Of a DNA stretch of 64,000 bases, positions 1-53,462 are shown one piece after another. Positions within the stretch are counted from its first letter, which is position 1. Each line of letters opens with the position of its first letter. Origin of the DNA: Escherichia coli (GTDB taxonomy: Bacteria; Pseudomonadota; Gammaproteobacteria; Enterobacterales; Enterobacteriaceae); NCBI RefSeq assembly GCF_002854065.1, contig NZ_CP024147.1, one strand, 5' to 3'. The position numbers and the translations under genes were made by a program. The notes under the pieces are model-generated. The model was not told where the DNA came from and did not search any database. It worked only from the letters and a program-made list of their open reading frames with translations.

Positions 1-445
1 GCAGCGGATAAAGTTCATCCGGCCAGTCATCCGGCAGCACCAGACGGCGTTCATCCGGCAGCCCTACCGGAATCAAACCGTACATATCGCGCACTTCGCG
101 CTCGCCCCACACCGCCGCCGGAACGCGCGGCGTCACGGACGGATACTCCGGTTTGTTGGCATCAACTTCGACGCGAACCGTTACCCAACACTTGGTGCCC
201 TTCTCCATCGACAGCACGTAATAAACGGCGTAATGACCATTCAGTTTGCGTTCGTCGTTACCAAACAGTACCGACAGCCAGCCACCCTGTTTGTAGTAAA
301 GAAACTCCACCACTTCCGGCAGGTAGTTCACCTTTACGGTGACAGTCAGCTGATCTTTGGTCTGCCAGGCGTGGTCCAGCACGACGCCCGGAAATGCCTC
401 ATTCAGCGCGGCGAGATAATGTTGACCTAATTTTTCTTCAGACAT
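1..445 (-). CDS. hycE: Formate hydrogenlyase hydrogenase-3 large subunit, N-terminal part; gene continues past window start
   Basis: Reverse translation from ATG at 445 gives MSEEKLGQHYLAALNEAF..., recognised HycE N-terminus; no stop before window edge. Confidence 0.9.
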   Translation of the reverse strand, partial: MSEEKLGQHYLAALNEAFPGVVLDHAWQTKDQLTVTVKVNYLPEVVEFLYYKQGGWLSVLFGNDERKLNGHYAVYYVLSMEKGTKCWVTVRVEVDANKPEYPSVTPRVPAAVWGEREVRDMYGLIPVGLPDERRLVLPDDWPDELYPL

Positions 446-462
446 GCTCAAACTCTCTTTAA

Positions 463-1386
463 TCACGCCGCCAGCAAGGAGACGAACGCTAAAAATGCAA
501 AGCCAAACCCAGCCCAGGTAATGCGCGGAGTAATATCAAGACGCAGACGGGCCATGCTGTTTTCGAACAGCGCGATAACCAGGACGCCGACCACCAGTTT
601 GACGATGGCAATCACCAACGCCAGCAGCAGCCCACCGACGGTGAAGGTTTCCATTTGTCCCCACGGAATAAACACCCCGACGAACATCTGCAGCACCACC
701 AACTGTTTCAGGCTGATACCCCATTTCATGACGCCAAAGCCGCTGCCGCTGTACTCAGAGAGCGGACCTTCCTGCAACTCCTGCTCGGCTTCCGCCAGGT
801 CGAACGGCAGTTTTCCCATTTCGATAAAAGTGGCGAACGCACAGGCACAAAGCGCCAGCACCAGCGGGATGCTCTGGCTCAGCGGCCAGTGATAAACGGT
901 GTCGGTGATGTTGCTGATGTTGGTGGAACCGGCAACCTGTGCGGCAACCCACAGACCAAGCAGCAGCATCGGTTCGACCAGCACGCCAAGCATCGCTTCA
1001 CGGCTCGCGCCGATAGCAGTAAACGGGCTACCGGTATCCAGACCGGAAATGGCAAAGAAGAAACGCGCGATGGCAAAGAGATACAGTAAGGTGATCAAAT
1101 CGCCCAGTTGCGGCAGCGGAGAACCAACGGTCACCACCGGCAGCGCAGTAGCGATAGTCAGCATGACGCCCACCATCACATACGGCGTCAGGCGGAACAC
1201 CCAGCCGGAGGCATCCGGGCCAACGCTCTGACGCCCCAGCAGTTTGATAATGTCGCGATACTCCTGCAACACGCCCGGCCCGCGACGGTTATGCAAGCGG
1301 GCGCGCGCCACGCGGGTTATACCGGAGAGCAGCGGCGCAACGGCAAATAACACCAGCGCCTGAATTAACGGATATAAAACACTCAT
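463..1386 (-). CDS. hycD: Formate hydrogenlyase membrane subunit HycD
   Basis: 307-aa ORF, polytopic membrane protein, expected position in hyc operon. Confidence 0.9.
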   Translation of the reverse strand: MSVLYPLIQALVLFAVAPLLSGITRVARARLHNRRGPGVLQEYRDIIKLLGRQSVGPDASGWVFRLTPYVMVGVMLTIATALPVVTVGSPLPQLGDLITLLYLFAIARFFFAISGLDTGSPFTAIGASREAMLGVLVEPMLLLGLWVAAQVAGSTNISNITDTVYHWPLSQSIPLVLALCACAFATFIEMGKLPFDLAEAEQELQEGPLSEYSGSGFGVMKWGISLKQLVVLQMFVGVFIPWGQMETFTVGGLLLALVIAIVKLVVGVLVIALFENSMARLRLDITPRITWAGFGFAFLAFVSLLAA

Positions 1387-1388
1387 TC

Positions 1389-3215
1389 TCAGGCTCCTCG
1401 TGAAACAATAATCACCACCAGTACCGCCAGTTCAACCAGCGCCATCCGGCGGAACAGCAACGCACTCCCCTCGCACTGCCAGCCCGGCACCAGCGACACC
1501 GGATTCAGCCATTTGCGCAGTTTCAGCACCGGCGCAAACGCCTGTTTCACCGGCATGGCAAAACCGTGAGCGGTAATCACCATTGATTTTTCGTGGTCGT
1601 AACCGCACACCCAGGCCGCACCGCGGGAACGCGATGGCAAACGATCGCCTTTGCAAATCGCCATAATGATGAATGGCAGCAGCGGGCAGGCAATCAGCAG
1701 CAACGTGATCATCGGTTGAGAAACGGTGGTGTTAGCAGGCTCCAGCGGCAGAGGTACAGCAGCAGACAGCATCGGCAGCAGCCACGGCGCAGCAACACCG
1801 CCAATTACGCAGCAAATCGCCAGTGCCACTACGCTTACGCTCATCAGGAGCGGCGCACAGGTGGCGTTTTCGGCTTCTTTGGTACGCGGCGCGCCGAGGA
1901 ACGTGACGCCATAGACTTTCGCCATACACATAACCGCCAGCGCACCGGTAATTGCCAGCCCCACAGCGAGCAGCGGCCCCAGCAGACGTGCAACAAACGC
2001 GCCACTATTGCTCAGTTTGAAAAAGGATTGATAGATAACCCATTCCCCGGCAAACCCGTTCAGCGGCGGCAGCGCAGCCATTGCCATCAACCCGACTAAC
2101 ATGGCGATGGAGATAACCGGCATTTTCTTGCCAATACCACCGAGTTTTTCGATATCGCGATGACCGGTACGGAACCAGACGCTCCCCGCCCCGAGGAACA
2201 GTACGCTTTTGAACAGGCTATGGTTAAGCAGATGGTACAGACCACCGACCAGGCCAAGAGCAATCAGCGCCGGTTGTTCGAGCGCGATACCCGTTACGCC
2301 AGCGCCCAGCCCCAGCAGGATAATGCCGATATTTTCCAGGGTGTGGTAAGCCAGTAGACGCTGGATGTTATGCTCCATCAGCGCATACAGACCACCGACG
2401 AACGCGGTGATCATACCGAGCACCAGCAGCGCGATCCCCCACCACAGCGGTGCATTACCACCCAGCAGCGACAGGGTTAAAATGCCCAGCAGGCCAATTT
2501 TCATGACTACCGTAGAAAACAACGCGGCAGCTGGCGCAGAGGCGTTCGCATGTGCCTGCGGCACCCAGCCGTGCAGCGGAATAATCCCGGCCAGCAGGCC
2601 AAAGCCAATCACACCGAGCAGCCAGATATCGGAACCGAGCGGCAGCTGTTGCATACGCATATCCAGCAGGCGCAGATCCAGCGTGCCGTAACGCTGCCAC
2701 AGCAGCCAGCAAGCAATCGCCAGCAGCAGAGTGCCAAGACGCCCCAGCGCAAACCACAGTTTGCCCTCTTTGCTGTTGTTGGTGAGGAACACCGCACACA
2801 AGGCCATGACTTCAGCCATTACCACGAACATGCCGAGGTTGCTGGCGATGACGGCGCAGACGGCGGCAGCCATCAACATATTGATCTGCAAGCCGTTGCA
2901 CTTCACCTGCGCGTGGCGATGCCAGTCAATGTTGTAGAGGCTGACAAACAGACCGCACAGACCGAGCGTAATCAGCCAAATCGCGTTAAGCGGAGAGATT
3001 TGCACATCGTAGCTTACCAGCGACAGCGCACCGCTCACGCCAACCGCGCCAGTCAGTACTGTGAAGCCCGCTGCTGCCGTATACAGACTACCAACCGCGC
3101 CGCCAATTCCGGCTATCCAGCCGCTTAGCGCCTTTTGAAAAGAAAAGAGAAATGCCAGAACAGCGGCGGCGACAAACCACGCCACGCCGCTATTGATCAG
3201 GGAAATTGCGCTCAT
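1389..3215 (-). CDS. hycC: Formate hydrogenlyase membrane subunit HycC (NuoL/MnhA-like)
   Basis: 608-aa ORF, antiporter-like membrane protein, operon context. Confidence 0.9.
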   Translation of the reverse strand: MSAISLINSGVAWFVAAAVLAFLFSFQKALSGWIAGIGGAVGSLYTAAAGFTVLTGAVGVSGALSLVSYDVQISPLNAIWLITLGLCGLFVSLYNIDWHRHAQVKCNGLQINMLMAAAVCAVIASNLGMFVVMAEVMALCAVFLTNNSKEGKLWFALGRLGTLLLAIACWLLWQRYGTLDLRLLDMRMQQLPLGSDIWLLGVIGFGLLAGIIPLHGWVPQAHANASAPAAALFSTVVMKIGLLGILTLSLLGGNAPLWWGIALLVLGMITAFVGGLYALMEHNIQRLLAYHTLENIGIILLGLGAGVTGIALEQPALIALGLVGGLYHLLNHSLFKSVLFLGAGSVWFRTGHRDIEKLGGIGKKMPVISIAMLVGLMAMAALPPLNGFAGEWVIYQSFFKLSNSGAFVARLLGPLLAVGLAITGALAVMCMAKVYGVTFLGAPRTKEAENATCAPLLMSVSVVALAICCVIGGVAAPWLLPMLSAAVPLPLEPANTTVSQPMITLLLIACPLLPFIIMAICKGDRLPSRSRGAAWVCGYDHEKSMVITAHGFAMPVKQAFAPVLKLRKWLNPVSLVPGWQCEGSALLFRRMALVELAVLVVIIVSRGA

Positions 3216-3823
3216 TTAGCCTCTCCACTTTGAGCCTGCTGAAACAAGGTGAGATCGCCAAAGTCCGTGTTAAAGGTCAGCTCACGCTTACGTTTGCTGA
3301 CGCGGGCGATATCGGTGTTATCCACCAGATGCAGGGCTTTAGTCGGGCACATCCGCACGCAGGCCGGACCTTGTTCATCAAAGCTACAAAGGTCACATTT
3401 GACGGCGATCGCGCGAATACCTGGCACCCAGTCAAGCAATGTGCTGACACGCGCCGGAGCAGGCGGTGCCGGTGGCGCTTTCGGGGTATTGGCGTTTGCC
3501 GGAATATCCAGCGGACGGCTGCCGGAAAATTCGATTGCGCCAAACGGGCAGGCGATGCCGCACAGTTTGCAGCTTACGCACAGACTTTCATTCAACTGCA
3601 CGGCCCCATCAACGCGGGTGATGGCGTTAACCGGGCAGACCACCGCGCAGGGTGCATCTTCACAGTGGTGACAGAGCTGCGGCGCAGATTCTTTTTCATT
3701 GAGCATCACTCTCAGGCGCGGCATTGATTGCAGGCCGTGCTGGCGATGCGTCTCTGAACAGGCGGCCTCACAAGTGTGGCAACCGATACAGAGCGTGGAG
3801 TCAGCAATTACAAAACGATTCAC
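3212..3823 (-). CDS. hycB: Formate hydrogenlyase 4Fe-4S ferredoxin-type subunit HycB
   Basis: 203-aa ORF with multiple CxxCxxCxxxCP motifs; overlaps hycC start. Confidence 0.9.
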   Translation of the reverse strand: MNRFVIADSTLCIGCHTCEAACSETHRQHGLQSMPRLRVMLNEKESAPQLCHHCEDAPCAVVCPVNAITRVDGAVQLNESLCVSCKLCGIACPFGAIEFSGSRPLDIPANANTPKAPPAPPAPARVSTLLDWVPGIRAIAVKCDLCSFDEQGPACVRMCPTKALHLVDNTDIARVSKRKRELTFNTDFGDLTLFQQAQSGEAK

Positions 3824-3871
3824 CAGGCATTCCTCAGGTGATTGTCATTTTTGACGAAAACATGCCGATGA

Positions 3872-3900
3872 AATGTCATTTTCGACACTCATCGACACGC
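3872..3900. promoter_or_regulatory. Repeated TCGACA motifs, candidate FhlA upstream activating sequence
   Basis: gtcattttcgacactcatcgacacg seen in hycB-hycA spacer; resembles motif at 4512-4550. Confidence 0.3.
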
Positions 3901-3947
3901 CCATCCCCAAACAGGCGTAACGCCTGCAAAACGGGCAAAGCCTCAGC

Positions 3948-4409
3948 TCATGCTGCCGGGCTTTGTCCCTTTACCAGTTGGCTTAAATTCACCGGCACAT
4001 TGTTTTCAATGGCGGTGTATAAGCTGTCGTAAACGCCAGCGATTTTTTCGAGATAGTGTTCCAGAACCTGTTCGCGATCGCGGATGTTGACCTTGCCATC
4101 AATCATGCCGTCAATGCTCAGTTGCGCCTGCGCAATCCGCTGTTTGTCTTCGCCATCTTTTGTTTCGACGTAATACTCGATGGTGTGGCTGTTAAAGCCA
4201 TCCGCCAGGGTGACGTAAATACGAAAATGTTCAAAAAGGACGAAACAGAGTTCTTTGTCCGGCGCGCAGCTCATGGCGTGATGCAGGCGCGCTTTCGATA
4301 ACGTGATCCCCTGAACCAGCGAATTGCAGTAGATGTGCCACTGGTCCTGTAGGCGACGATGCCGCTGTGCGATGTAATCGGCTTTCTCGCTTATTTCCCA
4401 AATAGTCAT
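3948..4409 (-). CDS. hycA: Formate hydrogenlyase regulatory protein HycA
   Basis: 153-aa ORF, first gene of hyc operon, divergent from hypA. Confidence 0.9.
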   Translation of the reverse strand: MTIWEISEKADYIAQRHRRLQDQWHIYCNSLVQGITLSKARLHHAMSCAPDKELCFVLFEHFRIYVTLADGFNSHTIEYYVETKDGEDKQRIAQAQLSIDGMIDGKVNIRDREQVLEHYLEKIAGVYDSLYTAIENNVPVNLSQLVKGQSPAA

Positions 4410-4445
4410 TGTCAGGTTACCCGTTTAACAGAGATGCCAGCTTTA

Positions 4446-4461
4446 AGCATTTTTTGTGCCA
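4446..4461 (-). promoter_or_regulatory. Candidate sigma54 promoter (-24 TGGCAC / -12 TGC) for hyc operon
   Basis: Minus strand reads TGGCACAAAAAATGCT upstream of hycA. Confidence 0.45.
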
Positions 4462-4511
4462 ACTTTTAATTTATTGTTATTAAAGCGATTTTTAAGATTT
4501 TGGTGAATTTC

Positions 4512-4550
4512 GTCGCCGTGTCGACGTGTCATTTCGACATCATCGACATT
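4512..4550. promoter_or_regulatory. Candidate FhlA upstream activating sequence, palindromic TGTCGA repeats
   Basis: gtgtcgacgtgtcatttcgacatcatcgaca between divergent sigma54 promoters. Confidence 0.4.
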
Positions 4551-4574
4551 ATTCACTGCAGGGATAATCAACAC

Positions 4575-4590
4575 TGGCACAATTATTGCT
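4575..4590 (+). promoter_or_regulatory. Candidate sigma54 promoter (TGGCAC-N5-TTGCT) for hyp operon
   Basis: TGGCACAATTATTGCT, about 30 nt upstream of hypA start. Confidence 0.5.
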
Positions 4591-4620
4591 TGTAGCTGGC
4601 AATAGTTAATGGGAGGCGAT

Positions 4621-4971
4621 ATGCACGAAATAACCCTCTGCCAACGGGCACTGGAATTGATCGAACAGCAGGCCGCAAAACACGGCGCAAAACGCGTAAC
4701 TGGGGTCTGGCTCAAAATTGGCGCATTTTCTTGTGTCGAAACCAGCTCTCTTGCCTTTTGTTTTGATCTGGTTTGCCGCGGCAGCGTGGCGGAAGGTTGT
4801 AAACTGCACCTCGAAGAACAAGAGGCCGAATGCTGGTGTGAAACATGCCAACAGTATGTGACGCTACTGACCCAGCGCGTCCGCCGCTGTCCACAGTGTC
4901 ATGGTGACATGCTACAGATTGTGGCAGACGACGGTTTACAGATTCGGCGGATAGAAATAGACCAGGAGTGA
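4621..4971 (+). CDS. hypA: Hydrogenase nickel incorporation protein HypA
   Basis: Starts MHEITLCQRALELIEQ, GGGAGG RBS, CxxC zinc motifs; 116 aa. Confidence 0.9.
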   Translation: MHEITLCQRALELIEQQAAKHGAKRVTGVWLKIGAFSCVETSSLAFCFDLVCRGSVAEGCKLHLEEQEAECWCETCQQYVTLLTQRVRRCPQCHGDMLQIVADDGLQIRRIEIDQE

Positions 4972-4974
4972 GCG

Positions 4975-5847
4975 ATGTGTACAACATGCGGTTGCGGTGA
5001 AGGCAACCTGTATATCGAGGGTGATGAACATAACCCTCATTCCGCGTTTCGTAGCGCGCCATTTGCCCCGGCGGCACGCCCGAAGATGAAAATCACCGGC
5101 ATTAAAGCGCCTGAATTTATCCCCAGCCAGACTGAAGAAGGCGACCTGCATTACGGTCATGGCGAAGCGGGCACTCACGCACCGGGCATGAGCCAGCGCC
5201 GGATGCTGGAAGTCGAAATTGACGTGCTGGACAAAAACAACCGTCTGGCTGAACGCAACCGCGCGCGCTTTGCTGCCCGCAAGCAACTGGTGCTCAACCT
5301 GGTTTCCAGCCCTGGTTCCGGTAAAACCACCCTGCTGACGGAAACCTTAATGCGCCTGAAAGACAGTGTTCCGTGCGCGGTTATTGAAGGTGACCAGCAA
5401 ACCGTGAACGATGCCGCACGCATTCGCGCTACCGGCACACCAGCGATTCAGGTGAATACCGGTAAAGGCTGCCATCTTGACGCACAGATGATTGCTGACG
5501 CCGCACCGCGCCTGCCACTGGACGATAACGGTATTCTGTTTATCGAAAACGTTGGCAACCTCGTATGCCCGGCGAGCTTCGATCTCGGTGAAAAACACAA
5601 AGTGGCGGTGCTTTCCGTTACCGAAGGTGAAGACAAACCGCTGAAATATCCGCATATGTTTGCCGCCGCCTCGCTGATGCTGCTCAACAAAGTTGACCTG
5701 TTGCCGTATCTCAACTTTGACGTTGAGAAGTGCATCGCCTGCGCCCGCGAAGTCAATCCAGAAATTGAAATCATCCTTATTTCCGCCACCAGCGGCGAAG
5801 GGATGGACCAGTGGCTGAACTGGCTGGAGACACAGCGATGTGCATAG
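4975..5847 (+). CDS. hypB: Hydrogenase maturation GTPase/nickel-binding protein HypB
   Basis: 290-aa ORF with N-terminal CxxCGC metal site and GSGKTT P-loop. Confidence 0.9.
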
Positions 5848-6110
5848 GCGTTCCCGGCCAGATCCGCACCATTGACGGTAACCAGGCGAAAGTCGACGTC
5901 TGCGGCATTCAGCGCGATGTCGATTTAACGTTAGTCGGCAGCTGCGATGAAAACGGTCAGCCGCGCGTGGGCCAGTGGGTACTGGTTCACGTTGGCTTTG
6001 CCATGAGCGTAATTAATGAAGCCGAAGCACGCGACACTCTCGACGCCTTACAAAACATGTTTGACGTTGAGCCGGATGTCGGCGCGCTGTTGTATGGCGA
6101 GGAAAAATAA
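5838..6110 (+). CDS. hypC: Hydrogenase maturation chaperone HypC
   Basis: [11 protein letters not shown]-terminus; start chosen inside the longer ORF; 90 aa. Confidence 0.85.
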
Positions 6111-7231
6111 TGCGTTTTGTTGATGAATATCGCGCGCCGGAACAGGTGATGCAGTTAATTGAGCATCTGCGCGAACGTGCTTCACATCTCTCTTACACAG
6201 CCGAACGCCCTCTGCGGATTATGGAAGTGTGTGGCGGTCATACTCACGCTATCTTTAAATTCGGCCTCGACCAGTTACTGCCGGAAAACGTTGAGTTTAT
6301 CCACGGTCCGGGTTGCCCGGTGTGCGTACTGCCGATGGGTAGAATCGACACCTGCGTGGAGATTGCCAGCCATCCGGAAGTCATCTTCTGTACCTTTGGC
6401 GACGCCATGCGCGTACCAGGGAAACAGGGATCGCTGTTGCAGGCAAAAGCACGCGGTGCCGATGTGCGTATCGTTTACTCGCCGATGGATGCGTTGAAAC
6501 TGGCGCAGGAGAATCCAACCCGCAAAGTGGTGTTCTTCGGCTTAGGTTTTGAAACCACCATGCCGACCACCGCTATCACTCTGCAACAGGCGAAAGCGCG
6601 TGATGTGCAGAATTTTTACTTCTTCTGCCAGCACATTACGCTTATCCCGACGCTTCGCAGTTTGCTGGAACAGCCGAATAACGGTATCGACGCGTTCCTC
6701 GCGCCGGGGCACGTTAGTATGGTTATCGGCACTGATGCCTATAATTTTATCGCCAGCGATTTTCATCGTCCGCTGGTGGTCGCTGGTTTCGAACCCCTTG
6801 ATCTACTGCAAGGCGTGGTGATGCTGGTGGAGCAGAAAATAGCGGCCCACAGCAAGGTAGAGAATCAGTATCGTCGGGTGGTACCGGATGCCGGTAACCT
6901 GCTGGCGCAACAGGCGATTGCCGATGTGTTCTGTGTCAACGGCGACAGCGAATGGCGCGGCTTAGGCGTGATTGAATCTTCTGGCGTGCACCTGACGCCG
7001 GATTATCAACGATTCGATGCCGAAGCACATTTCCGCCCGGCACCGCAGCAGGTCTGCGATGACCCGCGCGCGCGTTGTGGTGAGGTATTAACGGGCAAAT
7101 GTAAGCCGCATCAATGCCCGCTGTTTGGTAACACCTGTAATCCTCAAACCGCATTTGGTGCACTGATGGTCTCCTCCGAAGGAGCGTGCGCCGCGTGGTA
7201 TCAGTATCGTCAGCAGGAGAGTGAAGCGTGA
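6110..7231 (+). CDS. hypD: Hydrogenase maturation Fe-S protein HypD
   Basis: 373-aa ORF, conserved CGxH and CPVC motifs. Confidence 0.9.
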   Translation: MRFVDEYRAPEQVMQLIEHLRERASHLSYTAERPLRIMEVCGGHTHAIFKFGLDQLLPENVEFIHGPGCPVCVLPMGRIDTCVEIASHPEVIFCTFGDAMRVPGKQGSLLQAKARGADVRIVYSPMDALKLAQENPTRKVVFFGLGFETTMPTTAITLQQAKARDVQNFYFFCQHITLIPTLRSLLEQPNNGIDAFLAPGHVSMVIGTDAYNFIASDFHRPLVVAGFEPLDLLQGVVMLVEQKIAAHSKVENQYRRVVPDAGNLLAQQAIADVFCVNGDSEWRGLGVIESSGVHLTPDYQRFDAEAHFRPAPQQVCDDPRARCGEVLTGKCKPHQCPLFGNTCNPQTAFGALMVSSEGACAAWYQYRQQESEA

Positions 7232-8238
7232 ATAATATCCAACTCGCCCACGGCAGCGGCGGCCAGGCGATGCAGCAATTAATCAACAGCCTGTTTTTGG
7301 AAGCCTTTGCCAACCCGTGGCTGGCAGAGCAGGAAGATCAGGCACGTCTTGATCTGGCGCAACTGATAGCGGAAGGCGACCGTCTGGCGTTCTCCACCGA
7401 CAGTTACGTTATTGACCCGCTGTTCTTCCCTGGCGGTAATATCGGCAAGCTGGCGATTTGCGGCACAGCCAATGACGTTGCGGTCAGTGGTGCCATTCCG
7501 CGCTATCTCTCCTGTGGCTTTATCCTCGAAGAAGGATTGCCGATGGAGACACTGAAAGCCGTAGTGACCAGCATGGCAGAAACCGCCCGCACGGCAGGCA
7601 TTGCCATCGTTACTGGCGATACTAAAGTGGTGCAGCGCGGCGCGGCAGATAAACTGTTTATCAACACCGCGGGCATGGGCGCAATTCCGGTGAATATTCA
7701 CTGGGGCGCACAGACGCTAACCGCAGGCGATGTATTGCTGGTTAGCGGTACACTCGGCGACCACGGGGCGACTATCCTTAACCTGCGTGAGCAGCTGGGG
7801 CTGGATGGCGAACTGGTCAGCGACTGCGCGGTGCTGACGCCCCTTATTCAGACGCTGCGTGACATTCCCGGCGTGAAAGCGCTGCGTGATGCCACCCGTG
7901 GTGGTGTAAACGCGGTGGTTCATGAGTTCGCGGCAGCCTGCGGTTGCGGTATTGAAATTTCTGAATCAGCGCTGCCGGTTAAACCTGCCGTGCGCGGCGT
8001 TTGCGAATTGCTGGGACTGGACGCCCTGAACTTTGCCAACGAAGGCAAACTGGTGATCGCCGTTGAACGCAACGCGGCAGAGCAAGTGCTGGCAGCGTTA
8101 CATTCCCATCCACTGGGGAAAGACGCGGCGCTGATTGGTGAAGTGGTGGAACGTAAAGGTGTTCGTCTTGCCGGTCTGTATGGCGTGAAACGAACCCTCG
8201 ATTTACCACACGCCGAACCGCTTCCGCGTATATGCTAA
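7228..8238 (+). CDS. hypE: Hydrogenase maturation protein HypE
   Basis: 336-aa ORF, AIR-synthase-like, overlaps hypD stop. Confidence 0.9.
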   Translation: MNNIQLAHGSGGQAMQQLINSLFLEAFANPWLAEQEDQARLDLAQLIAEGDRLAFSTDSYVIDPLFFPGGNIGKLAICGTANDVAVSGAIPRYLSCGFILEEGLPMETLKAVVTSMAETARTAGIAIVTGDTKVVQRGAADKLFINTAGMGAIPVNIHWGAQTLTAGDVLLVSGTLGDHGATILNLREQLGLDGELVSDCAVLTPLIQTLRDIPGVKALRDATRGGVNAVVHEFAAACGCGIEISESALPVKPAVRGVCELLGLDALNFANEGKLVIAVERNAAEQVLAALHSHPLGKDAALIGEVVERKGVRLAGLYGVKRTLDLPHAEPLPRIC

Positions 8239-8311
8239 TAAAATTCTAAATCTCCTATAGTTAGTCAATGACCTTTTGCACCGCTTTGCGGTGCTTTCCT
8301 GGAAGAACAAA

Positions 8312-10390
8312 ATGTCATATACACCGATGAGTGATCTCGGACAGCAAGGGTTGTTCGACATCACTCGGACACTATTGCAGCAGCCCGATCTGGCCTCGCT
8401 GTGTGAGGCTCTTTCGCAACTGGTAAAGCGTTCTGCGCTCGCCGACAACGCGGCTATTGTGTTGTGGCAAGCGCAGACTCAACGTGCGTCTTATTACGCA
8501 TCGCGTGAAAAAGACACCCCCATTAAATATGAAGACGAAACTGTTCTGGCACACGGTCCGGTACGCAGCATTTTGTCGCGCCCTGATACGCTGCATTGCA
8601 GTTACGAAGAATTTTGTGAAACCTGGCCGCAGCTGGCCGCAGGTGGGCTATACCCAAAATTTGCTCACTATTGCCTGATGCCACTGGCGGCGGAAGGGCA
8701 TATTTTTGGTGGCTGTGAATTTATTCGTTATGACGATCGCCCCTGGAGCGAAAAAGAGTTCAATCGTCTGCAAACATTTACGCAGATCGTTTCTGTCGTC
8801 ACCGAACAAATCCAGAGTCGCGTCGTTAACAATGTCGACTATGAGTTGTTATGCCGGGAACGCGATAACTTCCGCATCCTGGTCGCCATCACCAACGCGG
8901 TGCTTTCCCGCCTGGATATGGACGAACTGGTCAGCGAAGTCGCCAAAGAAATCCATTACTATTTCGATATTGACGATATCAGTATCGTCTTACGCAGCCA
9001 CCGTAAAAACAAACTCAACATCTACTCCACTCACTATCTTGATAAACAGCATCCCGCCCACGAACAGAGCGAAGTCGATGAAGCCGGAACCCTCACCGAA
9101 CGCGTGTTCAAAAGTAAAGAGATGCTGCTGATTAATCTCCACGAGCGGGATGATTTAGCCCCCTATGAACGCATGTTGTTCGATACCTGGGGCAACCAGA
9201 TTCAAACCTTGTGCCTGTTACCGCTGATGTCTGGCGACACCATGCTGGGCGTGCTGAAACTGGCGCAATGTGAAGAGAAAGTGTTTACCACTACCAATCT
9301 GAATTTACTGCGCCAGATTGCCGAACGTGTGGCAATCGCTGTCGATAACGCCCTCGCCTATCAGGAAATCCATCGTCTGAAAGAACGGCTGGTTGATGAA
9401 AACCTCGCCCTGACCGAGCAGCTCAACAATGTTGATAGTGAATTTGGCGAGATTATTGGCCGCAGCGAAGCCATGTACAGCGTGCTTAAACAAGTTGAAA
9501 TGGTGGCGCAAAGTGACAGTACCGTGCTGATCCTCGGTGAAACTGGCACGGGTAAAGAGCTGATTGCCCGTGCTATCCATAATCTCAGTGGGCGTAATAA
9601 TCGCCGCATGGTCAAAATGAACTGCGCGGCGATGCCTGCCGGATTGCTGGAGAGCGATCTGTTTGGTCATGAACGTGGGGCTTTTACTGGTGCCAGCGTC
9701 CAGCGTATCGGTCGTTTTGAACTGGCGGATAAAAGCTCCCTGTTCCTCGACGAAGTGGGCGATATGCCACTGGAGTTACAGCCGAAGTTGCTGCGTGTAT
9801 TGCAGGAACAGGAGTTTGAACGCCTCGGCAGCAACAAAATCATTCAGACGGACGTGCGTCTAATCGCCGCGACTAACCGCGATCTGAAAAAAATGGTCGC
9901 CGACCGAGAGTTCCGTAGCGATCTCTATTACCGCCTGAACGTATTTCCGATCCACCTGCCGCCACTACGCGAGCGTCCGGAAGATATTCCGCTGCTGGCG
10001 AAAGCCTTTACCTTCAAAATTGCCCGTCGTCTGGGGCGCAATATCGACAGCATTCCTGCCGAGACGCTGCGCACCTTGAGCAACATGGAGTGGCCGGGTA
10101 ACGTACGCGAACTGGAAAACGTCATTGAGCGCGCGGTATTGCTAACACGCGGCAACGTGCTGCAGCTGTCATTGCCAGATATTGCTTTACCGGAGCCTGA
10201 AACGCCGCCTGCCGCAACGGTTGTCGCTCAGGAGGGCGAAGATGAATATCAGTTGATTGTTCGCGTGCTGAAAGAAACTAACGGCGTGGTTGCCGGGCCT
10301 AAAGGCGCTGCGCAACGTCTGGGGCTGAAACGCACGACCCTGCTGTCACGGATGAAGCGACTGGGAATTGATAAATCGGCATTGATTTAA
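8312..10390 (+). CDS. fhlA: Formate hydrogenlyase transcriptional activator FhlA (sigma54-dependent)
   Basis: Start at MSYTPMSDL inside longer ORF; GETGTGKE Walker A, GAFTGA motif, C-terminal HTH; 692 aa. Confidence 0.9.
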   Translation: MSYTPMSDLGQQGLFDITRTLLQQPDLASLCEALSQLVKRSALADNAAIVLWQAQTQRASYYASREKDTPIKYEDETVLAHGPVRSILSRPDTLHCSYEEFCETWPQLAAGGLYPKFAHYCLMPLAAEGHIFGGCEFIRYDDRPWSEKEFNRLQTFTQIVSVVTEQIQSRVVNNVDYELLCRERDNFRILVAITNAVLSRLDMDELVSEVAKEIHYYFDIDDISIVLRSHRKNKLNIYSTHYLDKQHPAHEQSEVDEAGTLTERVFKSKEMLLINLHERDDLAPYERMLFDTWGNQIQTLCLLPLMSGDTMLGVLKLAQCEEKVFTTTNLNLLRQIAERVAIAVDNALAYQEIHRLKERLVDENLALTEQLNNVDSEFGEIIGRSEAMYSVLKQVEMVAQSDSTVLILGETGTGKELIARAIHNLSGRNNRRMVKMNCAAMPAGLLESDLFGHERGAFTGASVQRIGRFELADKSSLFLDEVGDMPLELQPKLLRVLQEQEFERLGSNKIIQTDVRLIAATNRDLKKMVADREFRSDLYYRLNVFPIHLPPLRERPEDIPLLAKAFTFKIARRLGRNIDSIPAETLRTLSNMEWPGNVRELENVIERAVLLTRGNVLQLSLPDIALPEPETPPAATVVAQEGEDEYQLIVRVLKETNGVVAGPKGAAQRLGLKRTTLLSRMKRLGIDKSALI

Positions 10391-20913: not shown

Positions 20914-20946
20914 AAAAGGTCCGATGAGCATCGGACCTTTTATTTA
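20914..20946. terminator. Bidirectional intrinsic terminator between ygbN and ecdD
   Basis: Perfect hairpin aaaaggtccgatg-agc-atcggacctttt flanked by A-run and T-run. Confidence 0.45.
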
Positions 20947-21180
20947 GCGCTTATCTGCCGCCAGCAGCGGCGGAATGCTCGGCACCATTGGCGCGTCATC
21001 AATATCTTTCTGCGTCATGCGGAACTCTTCGGGATAATGTTCGCGGCTGGTACGGCGCAGCGGTTCGGTATCGCGCCAGGTATAAAGGCAATGCTGGCAC
21101 TGATATACCGTCCAGACATCTTTCACCGGCGATTTCGCCATCACTTCAATCTGTTCATCGGCACAACGTGGACAAATCAT
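20944..21180 (-). CDS. ecdD: Phenolic acid decarboxylase small subunit D
   Basis: 78-aa ORF with CPRC...CQHC zinc-ribbon motifs, downstream of UbiD-like gene. Confidence 0.8.
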   Translation of the reverse strand: MICPRCADEQIEVMAKSPVKDVWTVYQCQHCLYTWRDTEPLRRTSREHYPEEFRMTQKDIDDAPMVPSIPPLLAADKR

Positions 21181-21190
21181 CTTCTTCTCC

Positions 21191-22618
21191 TTATTTACGT
21201 GCAGCCAGCATAGCGGTCAGTTTTTCAGCCCAGGCTTTGGTTTCCGGCAAATCCACCACCGGCTGGCTGTAGTGACCACGGTTGTCCGGGGCGACAGGCG
21301 TGGTGGCGTCGATAATCAGCTTGTCGGTGATCCCCGCCGGGCTTGAGCCAGGGTCGAGTTCCAGCACGGACATATTCGGCAACTGCACCAAATCCCCTGC
21401 CGGGTTCACTTTCGAGGAGAGCGCCCACATCACCTGCGGCAGGTTGAACGGATCAACGTCTTCATCGACCATAATCACCATCTTCACGTAGCCCAGACCG
21501 TGCGGCGTGGTCATCGCGCGCAGGCCCACCGCGCGGGCAAAGCCGCCGTAGCGTTTTTTGGTGGAGATAATCGCCAGCAGGCCGTGGGTGTACATGGCGT
21601 TTACCGCCTGCACTTCCGGGAACTCGGCTTTCAGTTGTTGATATAGCGGTACGCAGGTGGCTGGCCCCATCAGGTAGTCGATTTCGGTCCACGGCATGCC
21701 GAGGTACAGCGATTCGAAAATCGGCCTGGTGCGGTAAGAGACTTTATCGATGCGCACCACGGTCATGTTACGCCCGCCGGAGTAGTGTCCGGTAAACTCA
21801 CCGAACGGCCCTTCGATTTCGCGTTTACGGCTTTCGATGACCCCTTCGAGGATCGCTTCTGAACCCCACGGCACATCAAAACCGGTCAGCGGGGCGGTGG
21901 CGATCGGGTACGAGCTTTCACGCAGCGCGCCTGCCATTTCATACTCAGACTGATCGTATTTCAGCGGCGTGGCCCCCATCAGCGTGATGATCGGATCGTT
22001 ACCGAGCGTGATCGCAATCGGCAGATCTTCACCGCGCTCTTCTGCTTTATGCAGATGCAGGGCGATATCGTGCATCGGCACCGGTTGCAGGCCGAGCTTA
22101 CGCTTGCCCTTCACTTCCATGCGGTAGATGCCGACGTTCTGCTTGCCGAAGTTATCCGGGTCGAGCGGATCGCGGGAAACCACGCACGCTTTGTCGAGAT
22201 AGAAACCGCCATCACCGTCGTTTAAACGAAACAGCGGCAGGATATCGAACAGATTAATCTCGTCACCATCGACGGTGTTCTGCGCCCAGGCTGGATTGGC
22301 GCGGCGCTCCGGGGCAATCGGGAAGTTATCCCAGCGGCGGATAAACTCATCAATCTGTTTTTTAACCGGGGTGTTTGGCGGCAGGCCCAAGGAAATCGCG
22401 TGGTTCTGCCAGGAACCGATGGTATTCATCGCCACGCGGGCATCGGTAAAACCGCGAATATTATCAAACCACAGCGCCGGTGCACCATCGCCGATACGCC
22501 CGGTGGCGTTGGCAGCGGCAGCCAGATCCGGTTCCGCGTTCACCTCTTCGCTGATTTTCAGTAACTGGCCGTGGTCATCAAGCGCCTGTAAAAAGCTGCG
22601 TAAATCATCAAATGCCAT
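21191..22618 (-). CDS. ecdC: UbiD-family phenolic acid decarboxylase subunit C
   Basis: 475-aa ORF, UbiD-family decarboxylase. Confidence 0.85.
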   Translation of the reverse strand: MAFDDLRSFLQALDDHGQLLKISEEVNAEPDLAAAANATGRIGDGAPALWFDNIRGFTDARVAMNTIGSWQNHAISLGLPPNTPVKKQIDEFIRRWDNFPIAPERRANPAWAQNTVDGDEINLFDILPLFRLNDGDGGFYLDKACVVSRDPLDPDNFGKQNVGIYRMEVKGKRKLGLQPVPMHDIALHLHKAEERGEDLPIAITLGNDPIITLMGATPLKYDQSEYEMAGALRESSYPIATAPLTGFDVPWGSEAILEGVIESRKREIEGPFGEFTGHYSGGRNMTVVRIDKVSYRTRPIFESLYLGMPWTEIDYLMGPATCVPLYQQLKAEFPEVQAVNAMYTHGLLAIISTKKRYGGFARAVGLRAMTTPHGLGYVKMVIMVDEDVDPFNLPQVMWALSSKVNPAGDLVQLPNMSVLELDPGSSPAGITDKLIIDATTPVAPDNRGHYSQPVVDLPETKAWAEKLTAMLAARK

Positions 22619-23211
22619 TATTCATTCTCCTGAGAAAAATTCCGGGCCTGCGGCAATCCTTGCCAGCGCCTGGCGTAGGGATGTTCAAGGCCAAATTGAT
22701 CCAGCACGCGGGCTACCACGTGGTGGACAATGTCATCTACCGTTTCGGGATGGTTATAAAAGGCAGGCATCGGCGGCACCATCGCCACGCCCATGCGTGA
22801 AAGTGCGAGCATATTTTCGAGATGGATGGTGTTAAGCGGCATTTCACGCGGCACCAGTACCAGTTTGCGGCCTTCTTTGAGCACGACGTCCGCCGCGCGC
22901 CCTACCAGGCCATCGGCGTAACCAGCGCGGATACCGGCGAGCGTTTTCATACTGCACGGAATAACGATCATGCCGTCGGTACGAAAGGAACCTGAGGAGA
23001 TGGTCGCCGCCTGATCCGCCGGGTTATGGCTGAAGTCAGCGAGGGCAGCAACATCGCGGGCGCTGTAAGGCGTTTCCAGTTCAATGGTGGTTTTCGCCCA
23101 CTTCGACATCACCAGATGAGTCTCGATATTCGGCATCTCCTGCAGCGCTTGCAGTAATGCCACACCAAGAGGCGCACCGGTAGCCCCTGTCATCCCGACG
23201 ATCAGTTTCAT
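22618..23211 (-). CDS. ecdB: UbiX-like flavin prenyltransferase, decarboxylase subunit B
   Basis: 197-aa ORF starting MKLIVGMTGATGA, flavoprotein fold; overlaps ecdC start. Confidence 0.85.
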   Translation of the reverse strand: MKLIVGMTGATGAPLGVALLQALQEMPNIETHLVMSKWAKTTIELETPYSARDVAALADFSHNPADQAATISSGSFRTDGMIVIPCSMKTLAGIRAGYADGLVGRAADVVLKEGRKLVLVPREMPLNTIHLENMLALSRMGVAMVPPMPAFYNHPETVDDIVHHVVARVLDQFGLEHPYARRWQGLPQARNFSQENE

Positions 23212-23324
23212 TGCTTACTCTCTTAATTGTTCGTATACGAACGTTATTATTAAAATACGCCTCTGTTCTCATTGCGGCAAGCACTGAAAAGTAACAACAT
23301 CCCCTTCGTCACTGAAAAACCGCT

Positions 23325-23765
23325 ATGATAGCGGCAGATAGTTTGCCCGGAGTTTACATGGCGTTACGAAATAAAGCGTTCCATCAGTTACGACAGCTTT
23401 TTCAGCAGCACACATCTCGCTGGCAGCACGAGTTACCTGACCTGACCAAACCACAGTATGCGGTGATGCGTGCCATTGCTGATAAGCCTGGTATCGAACA
23501 GGTGGCACTGATAGAAGCAGCAGTCAGCACCAAAGCAACGCTGGCAGAAATGTTGGCAAGAATGGAAAATCGTGGCTTAGTCAGACGTGAACATGACGCC
23601 GCTGATAAGCGGCGACGCTTTGTCTGGCTGACTGCCGAAGGAGAAAAGATACTTGCTGCGGCGATACCGATTGGTGACAGCGTGGATGAGGAATTTTTGG
23701 GGCGTTTGAGTGCAGAAGAGCAGGAGCTGTTTATGCAGCTGGTGCGCAAGATGATGAACACATAG
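23325..23765 (+). CDS. MarR/SlyA-family transcriptional regulator, divergent from ecdBCD
   Basis: 146-aa ORF with winged-helix MarR signature. Confidence 0.75.
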   Translation: MIAADSLPGVYMALRNKAFHQLRQLFQQHTSRWQHELPDLTKPQYAVMRAIADKPGIEQVALIEAAVSTKATLAEMLARMENRGLVRREHDAADKRRRFVWLTAEGEKILAAAIPIGDSVDEEFLGRLSAEEQELFMQLVRKMMNT

Positions 23766-23837
23766 GATGCAAATTGCCGGGTAGGACGCTGACGTGTCTT
23801 ATCCAGGCGACAAAAACACATGCTTCCCAAACAAAAG

Positions 23838-35070: not shown

Positions 35071-35223
35071 CTACTTCTTCGATTCGTAAGCGAGAACTGC
35101 CTTAAACTCCATACCACGCTCTCTGATACTCAACTCACATAACGAGTCGCCTACCATGAGCGTGAATCCCAGTACTGTACAACACAGTACTATGATTGCC
35201 ACAAGGGCATATTTTGTTAGCAT
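35071..35223 (-). CDS. Hok-family type I toxin (hokX-like), intact 50-aa ORF
   Basis: [50 protein letters not shown]: TM helix plus conserved SLCEL...LAYES C-terminus; GGGAGG SD 6 nt upstream. Confidence 0.75.
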
Positions 35224-35430
35224 GTCTTGCCTCCCTGCAAAGAAGAGACTAACATCCGAATTGCTACGTTCGAACGCGAGCCTCAGGTTGATAGAAATAT
35301 CGCCTGGGGCTTTTGTCCATCTGGAACCTCGCGAATGCTTAACGCCAGACAGCCTCAAGCACCCGACGCCATTCTATACCTGATAATTCTTCCAGCGGCG
35401 TTCACGTTTAAAATCAGGAATGCTGCTCGC

Positions 35431-49803: not shown

Positions 49804-51282
49804 ATGTCGAAGAAATACATCATAGGGATTGATGGCGGAAGTCAGAGCACAAAAGTGGTGATGTACGATCTGGAAGGTAACGTGGTTTGCGAAGGCAAAG
49901 GTTTATTGCAGCCGATGCACACGCCAGATGCCGATACCGCAGAACATCCTGACGACGATTTATGGGCATCATTATGTTTTGCCGGTCACGATTTGATGAG
50001 TCAGTTTGCCGGGAATAAAGAAGATATTGTCGGTATTGGTCTGGGATCCATCCGTTGCTGCCGTGCGTTATTGAAAGCCGATGGCACGCCTGCTGCGCCG
50101 TTGATTAGCTGGCAGGATGCACGCGTAACGCGTCCCTACGAACACACTAATCCTGACGTGGCCTATGTCACCTCTTTTTCGGGTTATCTGACGCATCGCT
50201 TAACCGGCGAGTTTAAAGACAATATCGCCAACTATTTTGGTCAGTGGCCGGTGGATTATAAGACCTGGGCATGGAGTGAAGATGCTGCGGTAATGGATAA
50301 GTTTAATATCCCCCGTCATATGCTGTTTGATGTGCAAATGCCTGGCACCGTCCTCGGACATATCACACCACAAGCCGCACTGGCGACACATTTCCCGGCA
50401 GGACTGCCGGTTGTTTGTACCACCAGTGATAAACCGGTAGAAGCTCTGGGGGCCGGATTACTGGATGATGAAACGGCGGTAATTTCTCTTGGCACCTACA
50501 TCGCGCTGATGATGAACGGCAAAGCACTGCCGAAAGATCCGGTGGCGTACTGGCCGATTATGTCTTCTATTCCGCAAACATTGCTGTATGAAGGTTACGG
50601 TATCCGTAAAGGCATGTGGACGGTGAGCTGGCTGCGCGACATGCTAGGCGAGTCGTTAATTCAGGATGCCAGGGCGCAGGATCTTTCACCGGAAGATTTA
50701 CTCAACAAAAAAGCTTCTTGTGTGCCGCCAGACTGTAATGGTCTGATGACGGTGCTGGACTGGCTGACCAATCCGTGGGAACCGTACAAACGCGGGATTA
50801 TGATCGGCTTTGATTCCAGCATGGATTACGCATGGATATATCGTTCGATACTGGAAAGCGTGGCGCTGACGCTGAAGAACAATTACGACAATATGTGTAA
50901 TGAAATGAATCACTTTGCGAAGCATGTGATCATTACTGGCGGCGGTTCGAACAGCGATCTGTTTATGCAGATTTTTGCCGACGTGTTCAACCTTCCGGCA
51001 CGACGTAACGCCATTAACGGTTGTGCAAGTCTGGGGGCAGCGATTAATACCGCGGTAGGTCTGGGGCTATACCCGGATTACGCAACGGCTGTCGATAAAA
51101 TGGTTCGCGTGAAAGATATCTTTATACCGATTGAGAGCAATGCCAAACGCTACGACGCGATGAATAAAGGCATTTTCAAAGACCTAACCAAACATACTGA
51201 TGTGATTCTGAAAAAATCGTATGAAGTGATGCATGGGGAATTGGGAAATGCGGATTCGATCCAGAGCTGGTCGAATGCGTAA
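49804..51282 (+). CDS. ygcE: FGGY-family carbohydrate kinase
   Basis: 492-aa ORF starting MSKKYIIGIDGGSQSTK. Confidence 0.85.
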   Translation: MSKKYIIGIDGGSQSTKVVMYDLEGNVVCEGKGLLQPMHTPDADTAEHPDDDLWASLCFAGHDLMSQFAGNKEDIVGIGLGSIRCCRALLKADGTPAAPLISWQDARVTRPYEHTNPDVAYVTSFSGYLTHRLTGEFKDNIANYFGQWPVDYKTWAWSEDAAVMDKFNIPRHMLFDVQMPGTVLGHITPQAALATHFPAGLPVVCTTSDKPVEALGAGLLDDETAVISLGTYIALMMNGKALPKDPVAYWPIMSSIPQTLLYEGYGIRKGMWTVSWLRDMLGESLIQDARAQDLSPEDLLNKKASCVPPDCNGLMTVLDWLTNPWEPYKRGIMIGFDSSMDYAWIYRSILESVALTLKNNYDNMCNEMNHFAKHVIITGGGSNSDLFMQIFADVFNLPARRNAINGCASLGAAINTAVGLGLYPDYATAVDKMVRVKDIFIPIESNAKRYDAMNKGIFKDLTKHTDVILKKSYEVMHGELGNADSIQSWSNA

Positions 51283-51329: not shown

Positions 51330-51500
51330 GGTTATCCCCGCTGACGCGGGGAACTCTCTAAACATAACCTATTATTAATTAATGATTTTTTAAGCCAGTC
51401 ACAATCTACCAACTTTACAGTATCACACAAACAACACATCCATCATGTTAAAGAGCACTTAACCCATTGATTAAAAAGGTAAATATTTAAAATAACTCTA
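51330..51500 (-). CDS. placeholder
   Basis: placeholder. Confidence 0.
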
Positions 51501-52520: not shown

Positions 52521-52692
52521 ATGAAAAAGGATTTAAACATGCTCAGGATATTCATCGTAATTATATTTATTTTCAATTTATCAGGCTGTGGATATAACGA
52601 TATTCAAACCTATGATGAGCAGGTTAACGCCTCCTGGTCTGAGGTATTAAATCAATATCAACGTCGCGCCGATCTTATTCCTAATCTTGTCG
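52521..52692 (+). pseudogene. LemA-family lipoprotein gene, 5' fragment truncated by IS1
   Basis: AAGGA RBS; MKKDLNMLRIFIVIIFIFNLSGCGYN... with LSGC lipobox; reading frame runs into IS1 left end after 57 codons. Confidence 0.6.
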
Positions 52693-52747
52693 GGTGATGC
52701 TGCCAACTTACTGATTTAGTGTATGATGGTGTTTTTGAGGTGCTCCA

Positions 52748-53023
52748 GTGGCTTCTGTTTCTATCAGCTGTCCCTCCTGTTCAGCTACTGACGGGGTGGT
52801 GCGTAACGGCAAAAGCACTGCCGGACATCAGCGCTATCTCTGCTCTCACTGCCGTAAAACATGGCAACTGCAGTTCACTTACACCGCTTCTCAACCCGGT
52901 ACGCACCAGAAAATCATTGATATGGCCATGAATGGCGTTGGATGCCGGGCAACCGCCCGCATTATGGGCGTTGGCCTCAACACGATTTTCCGCCATTTAA
53001 AAAACTCAGGCCGCAGTCGGTAA
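52748..53023 (+). CDS. insA: IS1 InsA
   Basis: 91 aa [21 protein letters not shown]..., GTG start. Confidence 0.9.
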
Positions 53024-53445
53024 CCTCGCGCATACAGCCGGGCAGTGACGTCATCGTCTGCGCGGAAATGGACGAACAGTGGGGATACGTCGGGGCTAAA
53101 TCGCGCCAGCGCTGGCTGTTTTACGCGTATGACAGGCTCCGGAAGACGGTTGTTGCGCACGTATTCGGTGAACGCACTATGGCGACGCTGGGGCGTCTTA
53201 TGAGCCTGCTGTCACCCTTTGACGTGGTGATATGGATGACGGATGGCTGGCCGCTGTATGAATCCCGCCTGAAGGGAAAGCTGCACGTAATCAGCAAGCG
53301 ATATACGCAGCGAATTGAGCGGCATAACCTGAATCTGAGGCAGCACCTGGCACGGCTGGGACGGAAGTCGCTGTCGTTCTCAAAATCGGTGGAGCTGCAT
53401 GACAAAGTCATCGGGCATTATCTGAACATAAAACACTATCAATAA
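52942..53445 (+). CDS. insB: IS1 InsB (transposase C-terminal part, expressed as InsAB' by -1 frameshift)
   Basis: 167-aa ORF in -1 frame relative to insA, recognised IS1 InsB. Confidence 0.85.
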
Positions 53446-53462
53446 GTTGGAGTCATTACCTG

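Follow-up and report, generated by a model that had tools for sequence, protein, structure and literature searches.

Divergent sigma-54 promoters and two conserved FhlA enhancer clusters in the hyc-hyp control region of an Escherichia coli genome

The hyc-hyp control region of Escherichia coli is a classic example of sigma-54 enhancer control, and it sets the level of formate hydrogenlyase, hence fermentative H2 production and acid relief. The sigma-54 holoenzyme forms closed complexes, and the formate-activated AAA+ protein FhlA binds the UAS and opens the promoters by ATP hydrolysis (PMC3844500, PMC11291172, PMC11841067). According to PMC11291172, FhlA binds to DNA on one side. Footprints of purified FhlA on its sites, and the requirement of these sites for induction by formate, are credited to Schlensog 1994 and Leonhartsberger 2000 in PMC11291172 and PMC4987338. 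In K-12, the ChIP-seq tables of PMC4591121 give one sigma-54 motif for each operon: OS27 for hycA (TTGGCACAAAAAATGCT), with a fold-above-threshold value of 91 and a start predicted 26 bp from the gene, and OS28 for hypA (CTGGCACAATTATTGCT), with a value of 201, the highest among the Table 1 rows compared, and a start predicted 20 bp from the gene. Both promoters are flagged in these tables as experimentally confirmed in EcoCyc. Genomic SELEX with the RpoN holoenzyme also picks out the hycA/hypA spacer as a peak (PMC8743547), PMC2636881 counts IHF among the activators of both operons, and the Salmonella homologues are bound by sigma-54, with hyc and hyp there listed as FhlA-dependent by ChIP-chip and microarray (PMC3844500). 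Control of both operons by FhlA and sigma-54 is the established reading and is already well described.

We analyzed a 64,000-nt stretch of one E. coli genome (assembly GCF_002854065.1, contig NZ_CP024147.1), called the window below. Genes were called from the list of open reading frames together with the RefSeq annotation of the matching strain CUWW06 and of K-12. Positions 3824–4620 fill exactly the stretch between the start codons of hycB (3823) and hypA (4621); hycA lies within it, with the hycB-hycA spacer on one side and the hycA-hypA intergenic region on the other. On the minus strand lie hycA (3948–4409), which encodes the anti-activator of FhlA, is the first gene of the hyc operon and sits between both clusters of activator sites; hycB (3212–3823), which has a GTG start at 3821–3823 in the ORF list and in the annotation of the identical strain, and a ribosome-binding site GAGG at 3832–3835; and hycC (1389–3215, from the annotation of CUWW06 and K-12). 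On the plus strand, hypA (4621–4971), the first gene of hypABCDE, is preceded by the ribosome-binding site GGGAGG at 4611–4616. After hypBCDE, fhlA follows directly downstream of hypE in the same window, with an annotated start at ~8312.

The window is chromosomal E. coli DNA, and the locus is the native divergent control region for hyc and hyp in the formate regulon. Of 5426 complete E. coli genomes, 5425 carry segment 3700–4700 at 95% identity or more. Positions 1–8700 of the window are 100% identical to CUWW06 and 98.4% identical to K-12. Within 3700–4700 there are 11 substitutions relative to K-12, none of them in the promoter elements or the hexamer clusters described below. Seven of the 11 are packed into an 18-nt A/T-rich patch at 4486–4503, between the IHF-like core and the enhancer cluster UAS-A, which is the least conserved part of the intergenic alignment. 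One difference, G/A at 4503, touches the weakly conserved left edge of UAS-A.

The original prediction named clear -24/-12 elements on both strands, and both are present exactly as quoted. The hyp promoter element, TGGCACAATTATTGCT at 4575–4590 (+), matches TGGCACN5TTGCW with no mismatch, and the hyc promoter element, TGGCACAAAAAATGCT at 4446–4461 (-), matches it with one. A loose sigma-54 pattern alone is not rare (4 matches in the window against 3.8 expected); a divergent sigma-54 pair within 300 bp, with the relaxed pattern, was seen in none of 300 dinucleotide shuffles. An RpoN matrix built from 186 sigma-54 promoters (PMC7658346, table 2) ranks P_hyp first (18.7 bits) and P_hyc second (15.1 bits) among 128,000 window positions. 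The two divergent promoters are 113 nt apart. By the rule that places the start 19 bp away from the centre of the motif, transcription is predicted to start at ~4435 (-) for hyc and at ~4601 (+) for hyp, leaving leaders of 26 nt to the hycA ATG (4409) and 20 nt to the hypA ATG (4621). Both window 17-mers are identical to OS27 and OS28, and the motif centres are 128 bp apart in the window as in K-12. Carried over by this identity, the in vivo sigma-54 occupancy reported in PMC4591121 would hold here too, and the predicted starts would agree with mapped ones on the strength of the ChIP-seq data and the EcoCyc confirmed flags cited in that paper. A scan of 3700–5100 for sigma-70 promoters and terminators returned counts at or under shuffle expectation. 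A scan for the FNR consensus gave just a two-mismatch match at 4470–4483 in the A/T-rich spacer and nothing convincing inside hypA.

Three further sigma-54-like motifs follow in the matrix ranking. The third rank falls inside hycC, where TGGCGCGTTTGTTGCA at 1989–2004 (-) corresponds to the intragenic K-12 site IS31 (GTGGCGCGTTTGTTGCC) in the ChIP-seq tables of PMC4591121; its last base is A here and C in K-12, which brings the window copy nearer to the consensus. The fourth, TGGCACATCTACTGCA at 4325–4340 (-), lies inside hycA and points towards hycB. It is missing from the Table 2 rows compared for this genome region (PMC4591121), and at 120 bp from P_hyc it is inseparable from that promoter at ChIP resolution. 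As a conserved promoter it was rejected: the motif is made of the codons for W-H-I-Y-C, its relaxed form occurs in 36 of 80 species, and its variation tracks changes in the amino acids and in synonymous codons. Coding probably produced it as a by-product, although sigma-54 could still bind it in E. coli. The fifth, TGGCACGCCTGCTGCG at 50082–50097 (+), scores 14.8 and lies inside a ygcE-like FGGY kinase gene; the name ygcE does not occur in the main-text portion of the ChIP-seq paper (PMC4591121).

Several other features of the window lie outside this locus. The ygcE-queE intergenic region holds a single orphan CRISPR repeat, GGTTATCCCCGCTGACGCGGGGAAC at 51330–51354 (+), beside an A/T-rich leader-like stretch, with no spacers and no further repeats around it. 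The short iap-cysH gap has no cas genes and no CRISPR array, and contains a hok/sok toxin-antitoxin locus at 35072–35364 (Rfam sok at 35208–35364 (-), 105 bits; Hok/Gef coding sequence at ~35072–35224); in K-12, the type I-E cas operon and an array occupy this position. At ~20945–23766, between ygbN and rpoS, the window encodes subunits B, C and D of hydroxyarylic acid decarboxylase together with a MarR regulator; we take this to be the known variable mutS-rpoS segment that is absent from K-12. In the matching strain, an internal stop makes ygbN a pseudogene. A copy of IS1 at 52675–53460 interrupts a LemA-family gene. Compared with the near-identical CUWW06, the window is without a second IS1 at ~48035 and without ~1.9 kb beside the IS1 at 53460, differences that are a recent IS1-associated rearrangement.

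The activator sites form two clusters. UAS-A (4505–4549, core TGTCGACGTGTCATTTCGACATCATCGACAT at 4519–4549) lies between the promoters and contains three hexamers, TGTCGA at 4519–4524 and TCGACA at 4534–4539 and 4543–4548. Measured from the predicted starts, its centre lies at about -99 for hyc and about -67 for hyp. UAS-B lies in the hycB-hycA spacer, inside the hyc transcript; relative to the predicted hyp start it spans -703 to -758. It is composed of two modules. B1, a T followed by GTCATTTTTGACGAAA, occupies 3843–3859, 20 nt upstream of the hycB start, and B2, TGTCATTTTCGACACTCATCGACAC at 3874–3898, carries two TCGACA hexamers 10 bp apart, at 3882–3887 and 3892–3897. Clustering of the bare hexamer is moderately unusual, with at least three within 30 bp in 6 of 300 shuffles, and the hexamer is over-represented across the whole window (49 against 30.7 expected). 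The two clusters have a longer 22/24-nt module in common, TGTCATTT(T)CGACA(C)TCATCGACA. Positions 4527–4548 and 3874–3897 form a direct repeat, TGTCA(T)TTTCGACA(C)TCATCGACA, with a local alignment score of 36 against 16.1 +/- 2.4 in shuffles, a score reached by 1 of 2000. To the left of the repeat copy in the spacer, at a distance of 31 bp, is TGTCATTTTTGACG (3843–3856).

We then compared these elements across HycA-anchored loci from 80 species of Enterobacteriaceae, including Escherichia, Salmonella, Citrobacter, Enterobacter, Klebsiella, Kluyvera, Raoultella and Kosakonia; patterns were counted in all 80 species and an alignment was made of 28. Gene order (hypA<>hycA>hycB) is kept in 80 of 80, and so are both divergent -24/-12 motifs with their GG and GC; TGGCA and TATTGC on the hyp side and AGCA...TGCCA on the hyc side are invariant in the alignment. 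UAS-A shows the conserved block GAC-R-TGTCATT-TCGWCA-N3-TCGWCAT, and its core TGTCATNTCGWCA is found in 70 of the 80 species. In UAS-B, the B1 sequence is exact in 76 of 80 species, with all 16 columns invariant in the 28-species alignment, and no other non-coding block of the region is conserved as strongly; in 64 of those 76 its distance to the hycB start is 20 nt. The B2 repeat TCGACAC-N3-TCGACAC is near-invariant. The exact hexamer TCGACA is absent between the promoters in 15 of 80 species, and the conserved unit is TCGWCA. The TCGACA hexamers are fragments of longer elements, not self-standing half-sites. The original prediction was right to place hexamer clusters between the promoters and again in the hycB-hycA spacer, but its term half-sites was loose for a TCGWCA unit embedded in longer blocks.

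The spacers between these elements vary in length in steps of ~11 nt, roughly one helical turn. From P_hyc to the UAS-A core the distance is 43, 54–57 or 65–66 nt, from the UAS-A core to P_hyp it is 33–35 or 45–46 nt, and from B1 to B2 it is 9–13 or 19–22 nt. Such steps match a face-of-helix constraint on proteins and stand for about four independent indel events, which makes them supportive rather than strong evidence. Since the distance from UAS-A to each promoter changes only in ~11-nt steps in Enterobacteriaceae, UAS-A would be held in helical register with both. Given the phase kept between UAS-A and P_hyp, UAS-A may also act on hyp, or may have to avoid a clash with P_hyp.

A published FhlA matrix from 13 characterised sites peaks on the same clusters. 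Window-wide, its first rank is 3874–3887 (16.7), its second 4535–4548 (15.5), and its fourth 3843–3856 (12.2), in B1. The test is partly circular, since this locus is very probably among the characterised FhlA-dependent promoters behind the matrix. The idealised 16-bp FhlA palindrome, CATTTCGTACGAAATG (PMC4987338), is nowhere matched in the window within three mismatches; inspection by eye gives 11 of 16 at 3846–3861 and 9 of 16 at 4530–4545 as the closest partial agreement. This palindrome is an idealisation drawn from sites such as these, and is not a defining criterion. Assignment of the clusters as putative FhlA UAS is based on the identity of the locus with K-12. Similar modules also occur elsewhere in the regulon, with a B1-like unit upstream of K-12 fdhF and TGTCGATGACA-type units upstream of K-12 hydN. 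Identity of the locus, the ChIP-seq motifs, the FhlA matrix matches and the Salmonella data together support the FhlA-dependent control of hyc and hyp that had been proposed for this region.

Between P_hyc and UAS-A lies an A/T-rich spacer (4462–4500, -) that includes an IHF-like core, TAACAATAAATTA at 4467–4479 (-), which agrees with WATCAANNNNTTR at 12 of 13 positions. The window contains IHF matches of this quality about as often as chance predicts (52 against 50 expected). The element gains standing from its position, where a perfect WATCAANNNNTTR core is found in 27 of 80 species, from its likeness to hydN and from the listing of IHF as an activator. The likeness is close: 4464–4485 agrees at 20 of 22 positions with the element that directly precedes the -24 box of K-12 hydN, and the promoters of hyc and hydN, both FhlA-dependent, may have an IHF or architectural site in common. 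An IHF footprint in the A/T-rich spacer between P_hyc and UAS-A was reportedly obtained by Hopper et al. in 1994.

Two other explanations were weighed against this evidence. The TCGACA clusters could have arisen by chance or could be sites of another regulator, such as the FhlA paralogue HyfR, with FhlA acting elsewhere. The modest clustering and window-wide excess of the bare hexamer would fit this, as would the unmatched idealised 16-mer. What the bare hexamer does not capture is the 22/24-nt module common to both clusters, which 1 of 2000 shuffles equalled, and the conservation of the blocks in 80 species while the flanking spacer varies freely; the published FhlA matrix also peaks on the clusters. 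We give this explanation hardly any credence. The invariant block between hycA and hycB could, on the other hand, be kept mainly for a role in the hyc mRNA, instead of or besides that of an FhlA enhancer. Candidates for such a role are a structure or binding site that controls translation of hycB, or partial termination after hycA. B1 does lie inside the hyc transcript, at its near-constant distance from the hycB start, and the spacer RNA is predicted to fold with -65.6 kcal/mol (z = -4.05), a stability that 0 of 200 shuffles attained, in a structure that includes the hairpin CAGGCGUUACGCCUG followed by UUUGGGG. However, the left arm of the long hairpin and the terminator-like hairpin are absent from Enterobacter, Klebsiella, Kluyvera and Kosakonia, where the DNA-type repeats are conserved. 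The same module recurs in UAS-A, which would be transcribed from neither predicted start, and the shift in B1-B2 spacing by about one helical turn is a property of DNA. No Rfam family matches in the region. RNA structure as the main constraint on the hycA-hycB spacer was rejected on the ground that conservation of the hairpin arms does not extend beyond Escherichia, Salmonella and Citrobacter, and an RNA-level role as the chief reason for the invariant block seems improbable to us, if less so than chance or a different regulator.

Two hairpins flank the hycA stop at 3900–3977 in the minus-strand RNA, GGGACAAAGCC...GGCUUUGCCC and CAGGCGUUACGCCUG with its UUUGGGG. They are found only in Escherichia, Salmonella and Citrobacter, whose spacer is 50–70 nt longer, and could serve as a partial terminator or stabiliser after hycA.

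A native hyc-hyp divergent control region run by sigma-54 and FhlA, with two UAS clusters, a probable IHF bend and feedback wiring, is almost certainly the best explanation of the locus. The sequence elements, their identity to K-12 motifs that are occupied by sigma-54, their conservation and the constraints on their spacing are direct observations; for FhlA occupancy, the role of IHF, the pairing of UAS with promoters and the feedback logic we draw on the literature. Sigma-54 RNA polymerase would wait as a closed complex on the back-to-back promoters P_hyc (-) and P_hyp (+). FhlA, a formate-sensing enhancer-binding ATPase, would bind both clusters: UAS-A (~4519–4549), between the promoters and roughly 100 bp upstream of the hyc start, and UAS-B (3843–3898), in the hycA-hycB spacer and roughly 700 bp upstream of the hyp start. 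A DNA bend at the A/T-rich IHF-like region (4462–4500) probably brings FhlA at UAS-A within reach of P_hyc, and ATP hydrolysis by FhlA would then open the promoters. UAS-A is said to serve hyc and UAS-B to serve hyp, in work associated with Lutz in 1990, Schlensog and Hopper in 1994 and Leonhartsberger in 2000. Transcription on the hyc side would produce the anti-activator HycA and the products of the hydrogenase-3 genes, and on the hyp side the maturation genes, reading on towards fhlA. With hycA on the hyc side and read-through towards fhlA on the other, the circuit would combine negative and positive feedback.

The simple picture has one dedicated UAS per promoter. A more speculative arrangement, to which we attach a low probability, would make both clusters a single phase-locked device, in which one FhlA oligomer at UAS-A acts bidirectionally and UAS-B, which is still more strongly conserved and lies 650 bp off across hycA, adds the remaining subunits by looping.

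Confirmation of the FhlA/sigma-54 reading adds no new biology, and the analysis gives exact coordinates for every element in the window. Mildly new are only the footprint across 80 species and the helical-turn quantisation of the spacers. The footprint tells which bases are constrained, namely TCGWCA rather than TCGACA, plus the invariant GTCATTTTTGACGAAA.

The closest described system is the K-12 hycA-hypA promoter pair, the same locus with the same gene order and identical ChIP-seq motifs; the window and K-12 agree at every base of the two -24/-12 elements, of both hexamer clusters and of the IHF-like core. Within the same K-12 regulon, fdhF and hydN-hypF resemble hyc-hyp in having a -24/-12 element, an upstream TGWC/GWCA array and an A/T-rich context. 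The fdhF upstream region contains the B1-like sequence CGTCAGTTTTGACG, and hydN and P_hyc have the 20/22-nt promoter-proximal A/T-rich element in common. Those systems have a single promoter and one upstream cluster, whereas hyc-hyp has two of each, with one cluster ~700 bp away inside the opposing operon, and the fdhF array consists mostly of CGTCA/TGACG where hyc-hyp has CGACA/TGTCG. Further afield, hyc-hyp shares with nifH/NifA and glnAp2/NtrC an enhancer ~100 bp upstream, a bend site between (here putative) and a -24/-12 promoter, and its spacing changes in whole helical turns, as in classical IHF-bend sigma-54 promoters. Unlike nifH/NifA or glnAp2/NtrC, it has the formate-responsive FhlA as its activator, and its enhancer is common to, or sandwiched between, divergent promoters 113 nt apart.
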